Shown: positions 24,913-33,677, counted from the stretch's first letter. The stretch is DNA of 64,000 nucleotides from Vicinamibacterales bacterium (GCA_963663815.1 OY760734.1), one strand, 5' to 3'. Program-made: numbers and translations. Notes: generated from the sequence alone by a model not told the origin.

Positions 24913-26454
24913 ATGCACGGGCGACGCGGGGTCGTGGCGGCGGGGCACGCGCTGACGGCGGAGGCGGCGGGCGAGGTGCTGCGCGCCGGCGGCAACGCCT
25001 TCGACGCGGCGCTGGCCGCCCTCTGCGCCGCCTGCGCCTGCGAGCCGGCCCTGGCGTCCTTCGGCGGGGGCGGGTTCCTCCTCGCCGTGCCCGCCGCGGG
25101 GCGCCCGCGGCTCTACGACTTCTTCGTGCAGACGCCGAGGCGGCGCCTGCCGGCGGACGAGGTCGAGTTCGAGCCGGTCGTCGTCGACTTCGGCCCCGCG
25201 CGGCAGGAGTTCCACATCGGCCGCGGCACCGTCGCGGTGCCGGGCGTCGTTCGCGGGCTCTTCGACGTCCACCGCGACCTGTGCACCCTGCCGGCGGCCG
25301 ACCTCGTCGCCCCCGCCTGCGCCCTGCTGCGCGACGGCGTCGAGATGACCGCGCTGCAGGCCCACTTCCTGCACCTGTTGCGGCCCATTCTCTGCGCCAC
25401 CCCCGAGGTCCTCGCGCTCTACTCGAGCCCGGGCGGCGCCCTGATCGCGGAAGGCGAACGCCTGCGCAATCCCGCTCTCGCCGGCCTCCTGGAGCTGATG
25501 GCCGTCGAGGGGGACGACGTCTTCTACCGCGGCGCGGTCGCGCGGGCGCTGGTCGACGACCTGCGGGCCGGCGGCCTCGTCGGCCTCGACGACCTCGCCG
25601 GGTACCGCACCGAGGTCCGGGCGCCCCTCGCCCTCGACTACCGCGGCGTCGAGGTGCTGACCAACCCGCCGCCCTCGGCGGGGGGCGCGCTCATCGGGTT
25701 CGGCCTGGGCCTGCTGGACGCCCTGCCGGTGGCGGCGGCGCCCCCCGGGAGCGGCCCGGCCGTCGCGATGCTCGCCGACGTGATGCGCGCCACCCGGTCC
25801 GCCCGCGCCGAGGCGCATGACGGAGAGTCCGCAGGCTCGAACGAGCGCATGCTCGACCCGGCGCTCCTGGCGCGGTGGCGGAACGAGGTGCGGGGACGGG
25901 CGCACGCCGCCCGGGGGACGACCCATCTTGGCGTGATCGACGTCCGGGGCAACCTCGCGAGCCTCACGCTGTCGAACGGGGAGGGCTCGGGGCGGGTCGT
26001 CCCCGGCACCGGCGTCATGCTGAACAACATGCTGGGCGAGGAAGACCTCAACCCCGGCGGCTTCCACCGCTGGCAGCCCGGCCACCGCATGACGTCGATG
26101 ATGGCCCCGAGCGCGCTGCGGTGGCCCGACGGCCGGCTCGTCGCGACCGGCTCCGGCGGCTCGAACCGCATCCGCAGCGCCGTGTTGCAGGTGATCGTCA
26201 ACCTCGTCGACCACGCGATGGACGTGGGCGCGGCGGTGCGAGCGCCCCGCATCCACGTCGAGGGCCCGCTGCTCAGCGTCGAGGGGGGTCACGACCGGGA
26301 CGCCATCGCCGAGGCCCTGCACGAGTGGCCCTCGCACCAGGTGTGGGACGATCGCAGCGTGTTCTTCGGCGGCGCGCACACCGCCGAGCGCCGTGGCGAC
26401 GTGCTCGGCGGGGCGGGCGACCCGCGGCGGGACGGCTTCTGCGTCGGCGTCTGA
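24913..26454 (+). CDS. ggt: gamma-glutamyltransferase family protein
   Basis: Start at the in-frame ATG 24913. GHALTAEAAGEVLRAGGNAFDAA N-terminus, autoprocessing Thr in ARGTTHLGVID, and TGSGGSNRIRSA. Confidence 0.85.
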   Translation: MHGRRGVVAAGHALTAEAAGEVLRAGGNAFDAALAALCAACACEPALASFGGGGFLLAVPAAGRPRLYDFFVQTPRRRLPADEVEFEPVVVDFGPARQEFHIGRGTVAVPGVVRGLFDVHRDLCTLPAADLVAPACALLRDGVEMTALQAHFLHLLRPILCATPEVLALYSSPGGALIAEGERLRNPALAGLLELMAVEGDDVFYRGAVARALVDDLRAGGLVGLDDLAGYRTEVRAPLALDYRGVEVLTNPPPSAGGALIGFGLGLLDALPVAAAPPGSGPAVAMLADVMRATRSARAEAHDGESAGSNERMLDPALLARWRNEVRGRAHAARGTTHLGVIDVRGNLASLTLSNGEGSGRVVPGTGVMLNNMLGEEDLNPGGFHRWQPGHRMTSMMAPSALRWPDGRLVATGSGGSNRIRSAVLQVIVNLVDHAMDVGAAVRAPRIHVEGPLLSVEGGHDRDAIAEALHEWPSHQVWDDRSVFFGGAHTAERRGDVLGGAGDPRRDGFCVGV

Positions 26455-26734
26455 CCAACTGCGCCGGGGACCCCGCTCGACGAAGCGCTGTTCGAGGCGT
26501 CCGGGGATCGCCCGTCAGGGAGGTCCCCATCGGCGATCCGGTCGGGCGTGCGGATGAATCGATGAGCGAAGATTCCGGGGCGGACGGCGCGGCCGCCCCG
26601 ATGCTCTTTGCTCCGGTCGAAGGCAGACGGGAGTCGACGGTGGGCGCGACGGCCGGATGCTCGGGGGCGTGGAGCTCGGCGAGGTGCACCGGGGTACAAG
26701 CCGATCCGGCTCAGCGAGCTACTGACCACCGACC

Positions 26735-27466
26735 TCAGGGAACCTCTATCCACCTCTCCATGTCGTCGAGGAAGGACGGGCAGTAGTCCTCATCGACGTG
26801 CTTGCTGTTCCAGAGGCCGGAGCGGCGGACGCGGCAGTCGTCGCTGGAACGGCCGAGCCAGCTGGGCGACGGCGGATCCAGCGCCTTGCGATAGCCGCTC
26901 AGAAGCGCAATGGCGTTGCGCTCGATCTTTCCGCGGTCGCTTCCCGGGCCGCGTTCGTCTCCGACGTTCAGCCACAGAAACGGCATGGCACGGATATGGC
27001 AGCTGACTCGCGCTTCGAGTTCCGTCTCCGTCAGCCCGCGGGGCGACCGCCCCCTGACACCGACCCGGTCGAGCCCACGCCGCTTCGCCGCCTTGCCTGG
27101 ACGTTTCCAGGATGGCGGCAGATCGATGCCGTCCTCCTGCGCCAGCGCCCTGCCGACGAGCCCGCGGAATATCGAGCCCTGATGGTTCCCGTTGCAGGAG
27201 CTCGCCGAGCCGCGATGCTGCCTCAGCCGTTTCCATAGCGTGCTTCGGCTCCCGGCCGTCAGCCCATGGGTTCCGACCCGCACGATGCGCAACCCTTTGC
27301 CCGATCTGGAGCGCTCTTCCCCGTCTTCGCAGAAGAAGTAGACCCCGCGTTCCGGCCACTTCCTGCGGCCGTTGCAGTCGGCAAGCTTGCGTTTCCCGCA
27401 GATGCGGGCTTCGAGTCGGGCGAGCAGGTCGTAGAAACGCTGCGTGTCGGCGAGGCGGTCAGCCAT
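26735..27466 (-). CDS. GIY-YIG (T5orf172-like) nuclease-family protein
   Basis: ERGVYFF (GIY) ... LRIVRVGTHG (YIG-like) ... LWKRLRQHRG (Arg/His) ... GKIERNAIALL (Glu/Asn), in the order expected for the GIY-YIG fold. Third-position GC is visibly lower than in flanking core genes. Confidence 0.6.
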   Translation of the reverse strand: MADRLADTQRFYDLLARLEARICGKRKLADCNGRRKWPERGVYFFCEDGEERSRSGKGLRIVRVGTHGLTAGSRSTLWKRLRQHRGSASSCNGNHQGSIFRGLVGRALAQEDGIDLPPSWKRPGKAAKRRGLDRVGVRGRSPRGLTETELEARVSCHIRAMPFLWLNVGDERGPGSDRGKIERNAIALLSGYRKALDPPSPSWLGRSSDDCRVRRSGLWNSKHVDEDYCPSFLDDMERWIEVP

Positions 27467-27721
27467 GAAGACACATTCTCCCTCGGATCCCTCGGTGTGG
27501 ACGTCGTGCGCCGAGGCGTTCAGTCGCGCCCTTGAGGAGCTCGGCGGTCCTGGAGTCGGCGAGGGACTCGGGCAGCTGGTCGCGCCAAGCCCCGTATTTG
27601 GCCTGCCAGGGCGCGGAGCTCGGCCAGGGGGCCGCGGCCCACCGTGCCGGCCGCGGCTTCGCCCGGGGCGGGCCCGCCGCTCCTGGGACGGGGAAAAGTG
27701 AGGCGGTCAGCCATGAAGACA
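27452..27721. repeat. perfect 22-bp direct repeat pair bracketing a 226-bp spacer
   Basis: GAGGCGGTCAGCCATGAAGACA occurs at 27452-27473 and 27700-27721. On the minus strand each copy encodes ...CLHG-stop overlapping ATG-GCT-GAC-CGC (MADRL...). Confidence 0.95.
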
Positions 27722-28147
27722 GGCGTTGAGCCACGCCAGTTGCTGGCCCTGCCGCAAGCCGCTCATCGGGACGCGCACCGCAAGACCCCGCTCGTGCAAT
27801 TGCGGTTCGAGAAACTGTCGATACTGTTGGCCCGCAAGAAAGACGACCGTATCAACGCCGTCGAGGCACGGCACGAGCGCGGCAAGCACGCGGCCGGCCC
27901 AAGCGCGCCGTTCCTCGACACGCATCGTGTTCAGGGTCTTTTCGTAGGGCTCGATTTCTTCTTCCGGATGAATCAAACCGTACTGCGCCGACAAGATGCG
28001 CCACGGGCATCCCGTCGTCTCCACACAGGCCCTCGCCTTTCGGAACCAGTTGGAGGTGTAGAGGTCCATCGCCGCCGCCGGCATCGCCCCTTTGGTCTTC
28101 ACGCAGGAGATCAGAAACAGCCGGCTGCCGTTACCGCCTTCCAGCAC
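27707..28147 (-). CDS. DUF6884-like small protein
   Basis: GTG start. The pattern RLFLISCVKTK...AMDLYTSNWFRKAR...WRILSAQYGLIHPEEEIEPYEKTL matches my recollection of DUF6884. Many A/T-ending codons (ttt, ctt, gaa, caa, tat), unlike neighbouring genes. Confidence 0.55.
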   Translation of the reverse strand: MLEGGNGSRLFLISCVKTKGAMPAAAMDLYTSNWFRKARACVETTGCPWRILSAQYGLIHPEEEIEPYEKTLNTMRVEERRAWAGRVLAALVPCLDGVDTVVFLAGQQYRQFLEPQLHERGLAVRVPMSGLRQGQQLAWLNACLHG

Positions 28148-28233
28148 AGTCTCATCGCTCCTGGCCGCCCCGCCGCGCCAGGCGCGGCCTGGGGCTCACC
28201 ACGGCCCCAGAGTCGCGGCAGCGCATCGGGCGA

Positions 28234-28782
28234 TTGAAGACGAAGCATTCCCGCGTCGCCTCGCACTACCAGATCGGGGTCACCGCCGACGAGACCGGCG
28301 AGAAGGCCGTCGCCCTCACCTGGACCCGCCGTCCCCGGGACGGCTCGATGGCCACCCATCCCGGGGTCTACTGCCTGCGCAGCAGCGAGACCGCGTGGGA
28401 CGAAGACGCCCTGTGGCGCACCTACACCACCCTCACCGACGTCGAGGCCGTCTTCCGCTCGCTCAAGTCCGAGCTCGGCCTGCGCCCCATCTACCATCAC
28501 AAGCCGCGGCGGGCCGACGGCCACCTGTTCATCACCGTCATCGCCTACCAGCTCGTCCAGGTCATCCGCACCCGACTGCGCGCACACGGCAACGCCGCCA
28601 GTTGGACCACGTTGCGCCGCATCCTCGACGGCCAGCAACGCGTCACCGCCACCTTCCGACGCCCCGACGGGCGCACGCTGCACGTGCGCACGGCCACGCA
28701 AGCCGAACCCGGGCAGCGGGACATCTACGACGCGCTCGGCGTCGACCCGCACCCCGGGGGCGTCCGCAAGACCGTCGTCTGA
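28234..28782 (+). mobile_element. C-terminal fragment of an IS1634/IS4-family transposase (5-prime truncated)
   Basis: YTTLTDVEAVFRSLKSELGLRPIYHHKPRRADGHLFITVIAYQL has the Y-x2-x-x3-E-x6-K spacing typical of the IS4/IS1634 C-terminal region. The catalytic N-terminal two thirds are missing. An AT-richer terminal segment follows (28800-28900). Confidence 0.7.
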
Positions 28783-29036
28783 CCGCCCCCCCTCACCGGT
28801 TTCGTGCACGTTTGTAGTGCCACTCGGGAATTATTGTCGCCGTAAGCCCTTTACCTACAATAGGTTGGGTTTTGGGTTGGTAAACTTGGGCTAGTTCTTC
28901 AGGAAGCTGACGGCGGCTGGATCACCGCCTACACTGGCCCCCAATCCCACTGCCCCGACTGCGGGGGCAGTCCGTGAGTCCGCCCCGCGGTGGCAGCTCT
29001 TGGTGTCCCTGTGCTGGGGCTCATCGAGCAGGACCT

Positions 29037-29414
29037 TCAGATGACGACCAGCGATGGACGTGCCGCCCGGCGCACCGCTGCCACGAGAATGGACGTGTCG
29101 AACGTCACGAGGCGACAGCCGTGCTCAACAGCCAGGGCCAGAAGATAGACATCCGTCAACTGCCGGGGGCGCGAGACGACCGGTGGTACGGTCCCGAAAT
29201 CGCAGTTCGCATCCGCATCACGGCGTCGGCAACGCTCAGCGTGTTCGGATACGCAGGTTGCGACAGAATGCGCACGCAGCCGTTCTGCGTCAGCGGGCAG
29301 GACGCCCAACCGTGGTGGATATTGCCCGCGAGCCAAGTCTCGGCCGCCGAGTTGTGCGTGTGGTTCTCGTCGAGCAACGCGACGAGTAAAGTTCACGTCC
29401 AGCAACGCCCTCAA
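29037..29414 (-). pseudogene. vapC: vapC (PIN toxin) disrupted by frameshifts and a probable internal deletion
   Basis: The PIN sequence is split over two frames. LLDVN is in the frame starting at 29414. LLVALLDENHTHNSAAETWLAGNIHHGWASCPLTQNGCVRILSQPAYPN is in the frame of ORF 29156-29377. RQLTDVYLLALAVEHGCRLVTFD is back in the first frame. The first shift is at the A-run 29388-29390. The segment between PYH and RQLTD is shorter than expected. Confidence 0.7.
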
Positions 29415-29417
29415 CGT

Positions 29418-29660
29418 TCAAACGCCCAGATCATCGCGAATCTTGTTGACGACTTCGTTGGTCACCACCGACCCGCCGGCCGGGATCGGCCTGAACCCGT
29501 ACCGCTCGCGCGCCCGCATGGCGCTCGTCCCGCCGCCTCTAGCTGGCAACGCCTCCCGCAGGAGCTCGGAGACGAACTGTCCGACGGGCTTGCATTCCTG
29601 CGCCGCAAGCACCTTCGCTGCATTCAGGATGTCCTCGTCGAGATCGAGGGTGGTACGCAT
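29418..29660 (-). CDS. vapB: VapB-type antitoxin
   Basis: MRTTLDLDEDILNAAKVLAAQECKPVGQFVSELLREAL is typical of VapB partners of this PIN class. Its stop is 3 nt upstream of the vapC start. Confidence 0.75.
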   Translation of the reverse strand: MRTTLDLDEDILNAAKVLAAQECKPVGQFVSELLREALPARGGGTSAMRARERYGFRPIPAGGSVVTNEVVNKIRDDLGV

Positions 29661-29985
29661 GGCTCTTCCTCTCCACTACACCGCGACGCCCCCACACGCA
29701 CCAAAGCGCTGGGAGACCCTGCGCCTGTGGCGACGCCGACGGCTCCTGCGACTCCTGCTATCACCCCAGGGCGGGGGCGCTGAACGCCGTCTCACGCCTC
29801 CCCGACTAGCGCGCGGCGCTGCCGGAAGGTCTCGGCGATGTCCGCCGCCCTTCGCAGGGGGCGGCCGCCGCGTCCGCCAACAGTCGATCTGAGCACGCCC
29901 AGTAGATGCTCGCGTTCCGGGCCCTTGCCCCGGCCGCGGCGAGAGCGGACGGCGTCGGCCACCCAGCAGTCCCCGTCCGTCCGGG

Positions 29986-32214
<2,229 letters not shown>

Positions 32215-32354
32215 GGTGTCCCCGATTGCGGCGTCGAACGATAGTGGACCGGCCCCGGACGGGCACGGATCCGACGATCGTACCCGATCCGTGACGCCGG
32301 GACACGCGCGCGACGCCGGAACACGGGAGCCCGCGCCGGTGACGATATAATCCC

Positions 32355-33677
32355 GTGCCTGCGATGCCTCCACTGCACGGGCTGCGTGTAATCGACCTGA
32401 CCCGGGTGCTTGCCGGGCCCTACTGCGCCATGATGCTGGGCGACATGGGGGCCGACGTCATCAAGGTCGAGGAGCCCTCGCACGGCGACGACACCCGGGC
32501 CTGGGCGCCGTTCGCCGACGGGGTCAGCACCTTCTTCCTGGGGCTGAACCGCAGCAAGCGGAGCGTCGGCCTCGACCTCAAGACCCCGGCCGGGGCCGGC
32601 GCGCTGCGGGCCCTGCTCGCCGACGCCGACGTCATGATCGAGAACTTCAGGCCGGGCAGCCTGAAGAAGCTGGGGTTCGACTACGAGTCGATCCGCCGCG
32701 ACCATCCCCAGCTCGTCTACTGCTCCATCACCGGCTACGGCCAGCAGGGCCCCCGGCGCAACCTGCCCGGCTACGACGCGGTCATCCAGGGCGAGTCGGG
32801 GGTCATGCACGTCACCGGCGCCCGGGACGGCCCCCCGACGCGGGTCGGGGTCGCGATGACCGACTTCCTGGCCGGGCTGTACGCGATGAACGGCATCCTC
32901 CTCGCGCTGCGCGACCGCGACGAGACGGGGCTGGGGCAGCACGTCGACATCGCCCTCCTCGACTCGATGACCTCGACGCTGGCCCTCCCCGCCAACGTCC
33001 TCTTCGCGACCGGCGAAGAGCTGGGCCGCGAGGGCAACGACCATCATTCGCTCACGCCGTACGAAGCGCTGGAGGTCAGCGACGGGCTGGTCATGATCGC
33101 GGTCGGCAACCAGCGGCTCTGGCGCCAGTTCTGCCGGGCCATCGACGAGCCGGAGCTGGAGACGGATCCGCGCTTCGTGACCAACACCGAGCGCATGCGG
33201 CACCGGGGCGAGCTCAAGGCCCGGCTCGGGTCGCTGCTCGGCGGCTGGACCCGCGACGCCGTCATCGAGCGCCTGCGGGCGCACGCGGTCCCCTGCGGGC
33301 AGGTGCGCTCGCTGGCCGAGGCCCTCGCCGACCCGCAGCTCGCGGCGCGCGACATGGTGGTGGAGCTCGACCACCCGCGGCTCGGGACGATTCAGGCACT
33401 GGGAAACCCCATCAAGCTGTCGCGCACGCCGGCCGTCGTCGACCGGCCTCCGCCGGCCCTCGGCGAGCACAACGAGGAAGTTCTGGCCGACCTGCCGGCC
33501 GCCGACCTGCCGGCCACCTCGAGGACCGACCGCGACTCGGGTTCCCCCGCCGCGGCCAGTGACCCGCCGGCCACGGACCCGCCGGCCACGGACCCACTGG
33601 CGGCGGAGGGGCCGGCGACGGAAGCACCGGAGGAAACGGCGCGGGCGGCCGCGGTGACCGCCGACGTCGGGGAGTGA
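32355..33677 (+). CDS. family III CoA-transferase (CaiB/BaiF-type) with a low-complexity C-terminal tail
   Basis: [35 protein letters not shown] and the DDTRAW motif. The tail [25 protein letters not shown] is encoded by a short 15-bp tandem duplication. Confidence 0.85.

Follow-up and report, generated by a model that had tools for sequence, protein, structure and literature searches.

A rearranged and probably degenerate copy of the candidate phage defence system PDC-M57 in a Vicinamibacterales genome

We analyzed a stretch of 64,000 nucleotides from a Vicinamibacterales bacterium (GCA_963663815.1, OY760734.1), hereafter the window, and focused on two genes that occupy positions 26735 to 28147 on its minus strand. 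The upstream gene, A, encodes a protein of the DUF6884 family and the downstream gene, B, a candidate nuclease that could be a divergent member of the GIY-YIG type. The pair is recognized by the component models of PDC-M57, a candidate defence system of the PADLOC catalogue, and we consider it almost certain that the locus belongs to this candidate. The copy of the window is however atypical, since the spacing of its genes departs from that of the family, and it is probably decaying. The cassette consists of the following elements, given in positions of the window:

27707 to 28147, minus strand: gene A, DUF6884 protein (PDC-M57A), 146 aa, GTG start, found with Pfam PF21818 and PADLOC.
27467 to 27706, minus strand: spacer of 240 bp, what remains of an unrelated small gene, X, now frameshifted, found by tblastn and from the copies of X at locus L002.
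26735 to 27466, minus strand: gene B, candidate divergent GIY-YIG-type nuclease (PDC-M57B), 243 aa, ATG start, found with PADLOC.
27700 to 27721: copy 1 of a 22-nt exact direct repeat, GAGGCGGTCAGCCATGAAGACA (plus-strand letters), with ATGGCTGA at the stop of A.
27452 to 27473: copy 2 of the 22-nt direct repeat, with the true start of B.

The assignment to PDC-M57 comes from profile hidden Markov models (HMMs). Protein B matches PDC-M57B (PDLC04714) with E=4.7e-79, over residues 3-241 and model positions 2-232 of 238, as well as a second PADLOC model, PDLC04713, at 4e-18. Protein A matches PDC-M57A (PDLC04712) with E=1.1e-37, over residues 9-142 and model positions 3-134 of 138. PDC-M57 is part of PADLOC-DB v2, and the supplementary table of the underlying study gives it as CAS_00183, 'assign as candidate PDC-M57' (Payne et al. 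2024, bioRxiv 10.1101/2024.01.29.577857). The candidates of that study were derived from gene cassettes located inside BREX, DISARM or type I restriction-modification loci (10.1101/2024.01.29.577857).

Protein A matches Pfam PF21818 (DUF6884) with E=1e-48 and 165.4 bits for a cutoff of 30, along model positions 2-134 of 135, in agreement with a preliminary description of this DNA that had recognized a DUF6884-like protein of 146 aa. It also matches phrog_5935 (2e-25). The score against YaaA (PF03883, E=2.7e-4, 21 bits) stays under the cutoff of 29.6, and the DpdC models of PADLOC align partially, over residues 23-101, with E ranging from 1e-6 for the best one to 4e-3. For DUF6884, the Pfam curators describe a YaaA-like fold with a positively charged cleft and single out the motifs CxxxK and LSAxxG (PMC11701544). 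Both are present in A, as C15-V-K-T-K19 and L52-S-A-Q-Y-G57, and are 96-100% conserved in 57 relatives; in addition, none of the 42 positions with a conservation of 90% or more in these relatives is altered in A of the window. One member of the family, YfjM, has been recovered by pull-down on abasic and RNA-base lesions, and in its AlphaFold3 (AF3) model a nucleotide is flipped into the conserved pocket (PMC11701544).

The AlphaFold2 (AF2) model of A has a mean predicted local distance difference test score (pLDDT) of 92.7. When this model was compared with the PDB using Foldseek, the top match was 2q07 (AF0587), with E=1.9e-3, a probability of 1.0 and a template-modelling (TM) score of 0.53 over 146 columns. 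Generic Rossmann-like folds scored only about tenfold worse, UDG and SMUG1 folds were found among the weaker matches, and the YaaA structure 5caj, whose match in a PDB profile search had E=0.93, remained outside the top 50. The protein of 2q07 is homologous to ArcS2 of Vibrio phage nt-1 (3.3e-8, including the motif PC-x3-KPY-x2-S-x2-H). However, comparisons of A with AF0587 and ArcS2 by hhalign, hmmsearch and shuffled Smith-Waterman alignment were all non-significant, and only the C-x3-K part of the ArcS motif was found in A. The resemblance of the modelled fold to the ArcS core is thus used here as a lead only. Both proteins that A recalls in this way act on DNA: DpdC, an enzyme of the DUF328/YaaA family, hydrolyses dPreQ0 to dADG within DNA, and ArcS2 converts dPreQ0 to dG+ in DNA.

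Protein B of the window gave no match in our local copies of Pfam, NCBIfam and PHROG or among PDB sequences. It belongs nevertheless to a large family, with at least 7,078 scored matches (more than 7,000 clusters at 90% identity). All 120 listed homologues carry a precomputed PF26468 (GIY_YIG_3) annotation; this family is absent from the Pfam copy that we searched, so that the label comes from the homologues of B. The sequence contains GVYFF, RIVRVGTH, RLRQH and IERN, in this order, and the conserved blocks of the family are, again in order, RGVYFF, RVVRVGTH, LWxRLxQHRG, GNHRGSIFR, MPFLWL, IERNAIALLS and SGLWNxxHVD. We retain Y43, R63, H67, R80, H84, E182 and N184 as candidate catalytic residues, of which Y43, R63, H67, R80 and E182, together with others, are invariant in 84 relatives. 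The first motif, G41-V-Y43-F-F, lies on a predicted strand (41-51), G41, Y43 and F45 being invariant in the same relatives. R80 (LWxRL) and the pair E182 and N184 (IERN) are invariant or nearly so and fall in predicted helices 77-85 and 177-189, their equivalence to catalytic residues being drawn from a non-significant alignment. The AF2 model of B (pLDDT 84) shows the succession beta(41-51), beta(59-67), alpha(77-85), alpha(99-111), then beta(162-167) and alpha(177-189), a predicted topology in agreement with a GIY-YIG core that has received a large insertion and is extended at its C-terminus. It is thus plausible that B is a GIY-YIG-type nuclease, as proposed in the preliminary description; this assignment would rest on the Pfam name GIY_YIG_3, the order of the motifs and the predicted topology.

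The association of the two families was analyzed in 80 genomic loci retrieved with B, of which one lies at a contig edge, leaving 79 evaluable. Using tblastn, A was found directly upstream of B on the same strand in 59 of the 80 loci and was absent from 20. The junction could be scored in 57 A-B loci: the two genes share an 8-nt ATGnnTGA overlap in 35 of them, a 4-nt overlap in 7, and are fused in frame in 6. The adjacency goes well beyond chance (57 of the 79 evaluable loci) and extends over several bacterial phyla. Single-polypeptide forms include P0077 and P0118, and an exhaustive HMM search for B, with matches in 2,806 cluster-50 representatives (757 of them at E<=1e-30), revealed A-B fusions in 29 of the best 150. 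In four proteins of 565-588 aa (P0372, P0375, P0394 and P0413), B comes first and is followed by a C-terminal extension with weak matches to DpdC and PDC-M57A; judging from their sequences, these are fusions in the reversed order with a divergent YaaA-like domain. In its normal form, the system consists of A, a small alpha/beta protein with a distant resemblance to YaaA and DpdC, and of B, the two being translationally coupled by the 8-nt overlap or joined in one polypeptide. Given the adjacency, the conserved overlap and the natural fusions, A and B very probably act together. In the window, A is also upstream of B on the same strand with no intact gene between them, and only the spacing is unusual.

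Other architectures were met in the B family, with an extra N-terminal domain without known identity, with DUF7662 or, in one case, with a 5'-3' flap exonuclease. The latter protein, P0501 (749 aa), contains a 5'-3' exonuclease (PF02739 and PF01367) followed by DUF6884 and then B, which hints at a connection with flap processing or repair, or may come from run-through of the gene call. The B homologue closest to that of the window, P0001 (L001:4031-5185, 93% identical), bears a C-terminal domain of about 70 aa (residues ~300-370) with the pattern Y.YFVEL.G..FP.K.VL.L.....FG...A..IL..LGF.I. A similar domain, with a precomputed PF26345 annotation, precedes B in P0076 (residues ~30-85). These two extra domains have no match in the local Pfam or PDB libraries, and they may represent an alternative DNA-binding partner that replaces A.

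The preliminary description had proposed that the stop of A and the start of B were linked through a repeated overlap. The octamer ATGGCTGA is indeed present twice, at 27707-27714 (A stop) and 27459-27466 (B start), in both cases inside the 22-nt exact direct repeat; the two copies are however 248 nt apart and the genes, separated by 240 bp, do not overlap. We estimate that an exact 22-mer repeat would arise by chance within 3.5 kb at a rate far below 1e-4. A duplication of the junction accounts for the repeated ATGGCTGA. The A-spacer-B layout is common only to the window and to the metagenomic relatives L003-L005, where the spacer has 82.6% nucleotide identity; in L004 and L005 the duplication is about 40 nt long and takes in the first ~12 codons of B.

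In the window as well as in its relatives, the spacer itself corresponds to a gene X whose reading frame has shifted. A reconstructed X peptide used in tblastn matched positions 27605-27534 with 87.5% identity over 24 aa, and in L002 an intact X immediately precedes a B gene that lacks A. The X protein is about 97 aa long and ends in ...AWRxxLPESLxxSxTAELL..DLDALDVELPRGFGRD; its family numbers 351 homologues of ~93-100 aa with an AERQRRYRARL-type N-terminus, all annotated 'hypothetical' and devoid of a Pfam domain. The alternative of a third small gene in the spacer (an open reading frame (ORF) of 64 or 91 aa) was rejected, in view of the lack of a family match, the flat GC over codon positions and the frameshifted X copy. 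Intact copies of X were located at L002:7749-8042 and L002:9806-9970, and further copies in L086-L093. Identical copies occur at several sites of one metagenome amid dense IS21 elements, group II introns and transposases, and they head varying sets of small genes (a 124-aa gene, a 194-aa gene, a DNA methylase, Uma2, an AlkZ-like gene, or B). X resembles a leader or recombination module that belongs to some mobile element and is present in multiple copies. As the simplest history of the junction of the window we infer a recombination of an A-B cassette with an X-B cassette, which would have duplicated the A/B junction and placed 240 bp of X sequence between A and B.

The cassette is part of a region of atypical composition lying between two core genes, which comprises:

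26455 to 29985: low-GC3 islet of 3.5 kb holding the cassette and debris of mobile elements, delimited from composition, from the G+C content at third codon positions (GC3) and from the identities of the flanks.
Ending at 26454, plus strand: ggt (gamma-glutamyltransferase), TIGR00066 at 2e-96, below the curated cutoff.
28234 to 28782, plus strand: C-terminal fragment of an IS1634-family transposase, NF033559 at 1.8e-30, model positions 357-482 of 483; outside the cassette proper.
29037 to 29414, minus strand: frameshifted vapC remnant, TIGR00028 at 8e-8 (model positions 98-128 only) and Pfam PIN at 5e-4.
29418 to 29660, minus strand: candidate vapB, intact, a weak call (Pfam VapB_antitoxin E=0.057).
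29986 to 32373, minus strand: monomeric icd (NADP-isocitrate dehydrogenase), TIGR00178 at E=0.

This layout, with two co-oriented minus-strand genes between ggt and icd, agrees in coordinates, lengths and motifs with the preliminary description. The latter had also reported more A/T-ending codons than in the neighbouring genes, and GC3 in fact reaches 0.94-0.98 in ggt, icd, a thiolase, a DASS transporter and a CoA-transferase but only 0.76 in A and 0.82 in B, while the overall GC falls to 0.63-0.69 over 26.5-29.7 kb. The flanking elements were likewise found as described, an IS1634 fragment and a vapB next to a decayed vapC. An ORF at 29156-29377 contains vapC from its N-terminus through its middle, and the C-terminal part is in the frame of the ORF at 29037-29414; vapB and vapC together are a decayed toxin-antitoxin system. 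Apart from A, B, the X remnant, the IS fragment and the vapBC remnants, the islet contains nothing else; dpdA (TGT-like) and dpdB are not among its genes. No tRNA gene was found in the interval of 20-36 kb. An inverted repeat of 21 nt (90% complementary) brackets the islet at 26579-26599 and 29858-29878. Each arm belongs to a GC-rich palindrome that follows ggt or icd; the two palindromes have a GCGGCCGC core in common, and the arms are probably terminators rather than the ends of an element.

Several features set the copy of the window apart from its family. Homology with its nearest relatives runs from 28149 to 26738, in other words from the A start to the B stop, and no further. The X remnant breaks the ancestral A-stop/B-start overlap. 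The cassette would have lost its native upstream region and now stands next to the IS1634 fragment, 86 bp upstream of the A start; a search of the minus strand for promoter-like sites found none. The ratio of non-synonymous to synonymous substitutions (dN/dS) between the window and L001-L005 amounts to 1.0-1.5 for B (e.g. 7.5 synonymous versus 23.5 non-synonymous differences) and to 1.1-1.2 for A, as compared with 0.26-0.69 for the more distant L006, L007 and L019. At six sites with at least 85% conservation, B of the window also departs from its family. One of these changes is R96Q, in the GNHRGSIF block: among 85 sequences the glutamine is found only in the window, 83 of the 84 relatives having an arginine and the remaining one an alignment gap. 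Sister copies are damaged too, A being rearranged in L003, and B of L014 carrying an insertion of 135 bp with no A upstream; the cassette is also lost or decayed in L012, L013 and L075. L014, a Vicinamibacterales metagenome-assembled genome (OZ253457.1), holds the closest B of the genome collection (96% nucleotide identity), its insertion lying at L014:10650-10786. This insertion and the loss of A are a further sign that the sub-lineage is degenerating.

In view of the broken coupling, the homology ending at the ORF borders, the dN/dS close to 1, R96Q and the damaged sister copies, the copy of the window is likely to be under relaxed constraint, and most likely it is inactive or on its way to loss. 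On the other hand, one could imagine that it still works, the spacer providing B with a separate ribosome-binding site and possibly with a promoter. Both ORFs are open, A keeps every conserved residue, and the A-spacer-B layout has been kept in L004 and L005. A few bases before its start, on the minus strand, B is preceded by a GGGAGAA Shine-Dalgarno-like sequence that is identical upstream of the A-less B genes of L001 and L014. Moreover, a dN/dS around 1 could also reflect diversifying selection of the kind typical of immune genes, which, together with the intact ORFs, speaks against decay. A working copy is nonetheless unlikely: R96Q and the five other deviations affect conserved sites of B, the spacer is a pseudogene in the window and in its relatives alike, the native region upstream of A is gone, an IS fragment lies 86 bp away and the minus strand shows no promoter-like site, and the sister copies of L003 and L014 are broken.

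Beyond the window, loci with A-B or B were found in Acidobacteriota, Chloroflexota, Alpha- and Gammaproteobacteria, Nitrospirota and unclassified bacteria, most of them at 53-71% identity and the closest (L014) at 89%. Plasmids of haloarchaea and Deinococcus carry copies of B with 37-48% identity. Such identities across phyla and the plasmid copies point to horizontal transfer, and close relatives of the copy of the window adjoin integrases, a resolvase, a relaxase and ParA. To illustrate this spread, plasmid pHH126 of Haloarcula hispanica (L096; NC_023011.1, 98024-112698) has a B copy with 42% identity, annotated 'hypothetical', between ArdC-like and HNH endonuclease genes, about 7 kb from cas1/cas2 and with a separate DUF6884 gene 6.7 kb off. 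With this archaeal plasmid copy the B family crosses the boundary between bacteria and archaea. The phage distribution of the two proteins differs, A having homologues in 22 phage genomes and B in none of 50,697. In the Caulobacter and Bradyrhizobium phages, the contexts of the A homologues are all annotated 'hypothetical' and give no functional clue.

B is also found alone. A-less B lies downstream of a PduO-type cob(I)alamin adenosyltransferase gene in five loci (L050, L055, L059, L067 and L083) and downstream of a NIPSNAP-like gene in three loci of Dehalococcoidia/Chloroflexota (L064, L069 and L079). These loci belong to several metagenome-assembled genomes, and their B genes have lost none of the conserved residues. 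Such recurrent chromosomal contexts suggest vertically kept B genes that are independent of A. The persistence of A-less B indicates that B is tolerated alone and that A is not obligatory, which argues against a strict toxin/antidote or restriction-modification relation between the two; such a relation was downgraded, the A-less B genes being intact. The cassette usually inserts alone and not in large defence islands. Payne et al. likewise reported that the candidates in general lie mostly outside large defence islands (10.1101/2024.01.29.577857).

Altogether, we propose that the locus is a rearranged and decaying PDC-M57 copy of a two-part DNA-targeting module, in which A would recognize and B would cut, and we give this reading a probability of about one in two. 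A would bind DNA and recognize a particular base, whether flipped out, modified or damaged, and would then direct or license B to nick or cut that DNA. The pair would thus form a small nucleic-acid-targeting module, most likely one that restricts phages or other invading DNA. Defence as the role of the family is tentative, at slightly less than even odds, and the sensor-plus-nuclease mechanism in the form given here is rather doubtful.

A number of observations weigh against this proposal. Concerning its premise, PDC-M57 is one of 145 phage defence candidates, untested according to the authors (10.1101/2024.01.29.577857); in the searchable literature it is not mentioned, and DUF6884 only seldom. 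Concerning the neighbourhood, housekeeping genes prevail next to 48 A-B loci, accompanied by three integrases and sparse defence or candidate-defence matches (PDC-S11, PDC-S18, PDC-S02, PDC-S23, PDC-S05, DRT, an HKD+Snf2 protein, MzaE and AIPR), so that there is no strong defence-island signal around the A-B loci. Intact B without A occurs in 20 evaluable loci, plus L001 and L002, with all candidate catalytic residues kept. The tie of A to YaaA, DpdC and ArcS is weak at the level of the sequence. Finally, the nature of B itself can be questioned. With Foldseek, the best PDB match of its AF2 model had E=2.4, nothing reached E<=1e-3 in the PDB or BFVD, and GIY-YIG entries of BFVD appeared only at E=4-8. 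No GIY-YIG match was obtained with B by phmmer and profile search of PDB sequences, and a local Pfam scan for PF01541 matched 0 of 54 members of the B family. Using hhalign with N-terminal domain sequences of UvrC and I-TevI, the alignments were non-significant (E=0.26 for UvrC and 0.77), even if GVY, VG and RL came in register with UvrC at E=0.26. Furthermore, the second tyrosine of the canonical YIG is absent: the motif reads V-R63-V-G65-T-H67, with an invariant arginine aligned to the tyrosine of UvrC. Since the structural, PDB, Pfam and hhalign comparisons are all non-significant, we treat the GIY-YIG fold of B as unconfirmed. In favour of a nuclease role of B stand the ordered motifs, the Pfam name, the predicted topology and the invariance of Y43, R63, H67, R80 and E182.

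A first alternative is that the module serves DNA repair. A would recognize damaged DNA of the cell itself (for example an abasic site, a misincorporated ribonucleotide or an oxidised base) and B would incise nearby, the whole forming a horizontally spread excision-repair cassette. The GIY-YIG domain of UvrC or Cho makes precisely such an incision beside a lesion. The recovery of YfjM on abasic and RNA-base lesions and the nucleotide-flipping AF3 model (PMC11701544) go in this direction. So do the ties of YaaA relatives to oxidative and DNA-damage responses, the UDG/SMUG1 folds among the weaker matches of A, the flap exonuclease joined to A-B in P0501, the mostly housekeeping neighbours (with NucS-type genes in two loci), the conserved chromosomal contexts of A-less B and the absence of B from phage genomes. 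The distribution is however patchy, with copies of high identity in different phyla and domains, some on plasmids and others next to integrases or a relaxase, which is atypical for core repair; in addition, the cassette was first picked up inside BREX, DISARM or type I restriction-modification loci and is easily lost or decayed, as in the window, L003, L012, L013 and L075. We regard repair as an unlikely role for the family.

A more specific form of the DNA-targeting proposal would be a modification-dependent, type IV-like restriction, in which A would act on a base of the 7-deazaguanine type (dPreQ0, dADG or dG+), or on a similar hypermodified base with which phages escape restriction, and B would cut. 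A would then be a DpdC/ArcS-like domain, whose invariant Cys-x3-Lys may flip out, recognize or covalently engage the base. This idea arises from the matches of A to DpdC models, its fold match with the ArcS core, the fusions in both orders and the tolerance of B alone. To our knowledge, no earlier restriction system is aimed at 7-deazaguanine-modified DNA. In so precise a form the proposal is improbable.

Could A instead modify a base of the host DNA as a self mark, with B cutting unmarked DNA? DpdC and ArcS2, the distant relatives of A, alter a base already in DNA, the invariant Cys-x3-Lys of A could be catalytic, and the gene order and tight coupling resemble small restriction-modification operons. 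Yet a B that cuts unmarked DNA should kill its host once the modifier is lost, and intact A-less B persists in at least 20 loci; A-B fusions in a single polypeptide would be unusual for an antagonistic modifier and nuclease, and the cassette has no cofactor-binding or transferase domain and no base-insertion gene of the dpdA type. Such a pair is highly improbable. Least credible of all is a selfish element without benefit for the host, either an addiction pair of toxin and antitoxin, maintained by post-segregational killing, or a homing nuclease with its helper, which would copy itself into empty sites: GIY-YIG nucleases do include homing endonucleases, the homology ends exactly at the A start and the B stop, leaving an isolated, cassette-like insert of two genes among housekeeping genes, and a vapBC remnant lies in the same islet, but the lack of any B match in the phage genomes argues against a phage homing endonuclease, neither an intron nor an intein was observed around B, conserved target sites and flanking repeats did not turn up apart from the internal duplication of the junction, A-less B and B-less A are both common against an obligate toxin/antidote dependence, and a single-protein fusion is incompatible with a labile antitoxin.

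Returning to the DNA-targeting module, the preliminary description had presented the pair as an uncharacterised defence or selfish nuclease module. The idea of a module is supported by the PDC-M57 models and by the coupling of A and B; the pair, however, is already catalogued and the copy is rearranged. The suggestion that A might be an immunity partner is weakened by the intact A-less B of about a quarter of the loci. The locus is an atypical, probably degenerate member of PDC-M57, and the notion of a defence candidate is already in the public catalogue. Several elements are new with respect to the searchable literature: the conservation of the 8-nt coupling, how often A and B are fused, in either order, the fact that B is tolerated when A is missing, the distribution of A among phages, and the leads towards DpdC and the ArcS core.

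The family, rather than the copy of the window, is thus the object of interest. The window locus, probably a decaying remnant, is a poor representative of PDC-M57 and unsuited to functional work. B on the other hand belongs to a large family, spread across bacterial phyla and haloarchaea and mostly tied to a DUF6884/DpdC-like domain by the 8-nt overlap or by fusion. If the family were indeed a defence system, it would bring into the immune repertoire a new type of sensor, a base-flipping YaaA/DpdC-like domain; if it were a repair module, it would represent a new pathway of lesion recognition and incision. For either case the analysis offers handles, namely the coupling geometry, the fusions in which either domain comes first, the residues proposed for catalysis, the tolerance of lone B, the presence of A and not B in phages, and the DpdC and ArcS leads.

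A parallel can finally be drawn with known systems. With PDC-M57, itself a prediction only, the locus shares the matches to both component HMMs (A 1.1e-37, B 4.7e-79) and the order A then B on one strand; it differs by the 240 bp between the genes instead of the usual 8-nt overlap, by the pseudogene remnant in this interval and by R96Q in B. With the GIY-YIG nucleases (UvrC N-terminal domain, I-TevI, Eco29kI; PF01541), B has in common the order of its conserved elements, with a GVY in the predicted first beta-strand, an xVG in the second, a predicted helix with an arginine and a later one with Glu/Asn (IERN), the residues of these helices being only tentatively equated with catalytic ones. Unlike them, it has no match to PF01541 or to a solved structure, an invariant arginine takes the place of the second tyrosine, and the protein contains an insertion of ~60 residues and a conserved C-terminal extension of ~55 residues (WLG...SGLWN.xHVD). 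The ArcS core and ArcS2 (DUF5591; 2q07) provide the top fold match of A, with a Cys-x3-Lys/Arg just past the first beta-strand in both; there is no significant sequence or profile similarity to A, and the full PC-x3-KPY-x2-S-x2-H motif is absent as such. DpdC, from the Dpd 7-deazaguanine system, acts on a base within DNA and shows a weak but repeated HMM similarity to residues 23-101 of A, and the C-terminal extensions of some B fusions match it as well. A is however half its size and under the PF03883 cutoff (21 versus 29.6 bits), and its cassette lacks dpdA, dpdB and preQ0-synthesis genes. The last comparison is with YfjM of Bacillus subtilis, with which A shares a full-length PF21818 match over the gathering score and the CxxxK and LSAxxG motifs. 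Whereas YfjM, for which a role in DNA repair has been proposed, stands alone, the same domain is here coupled or fused to a candidate nuclease.

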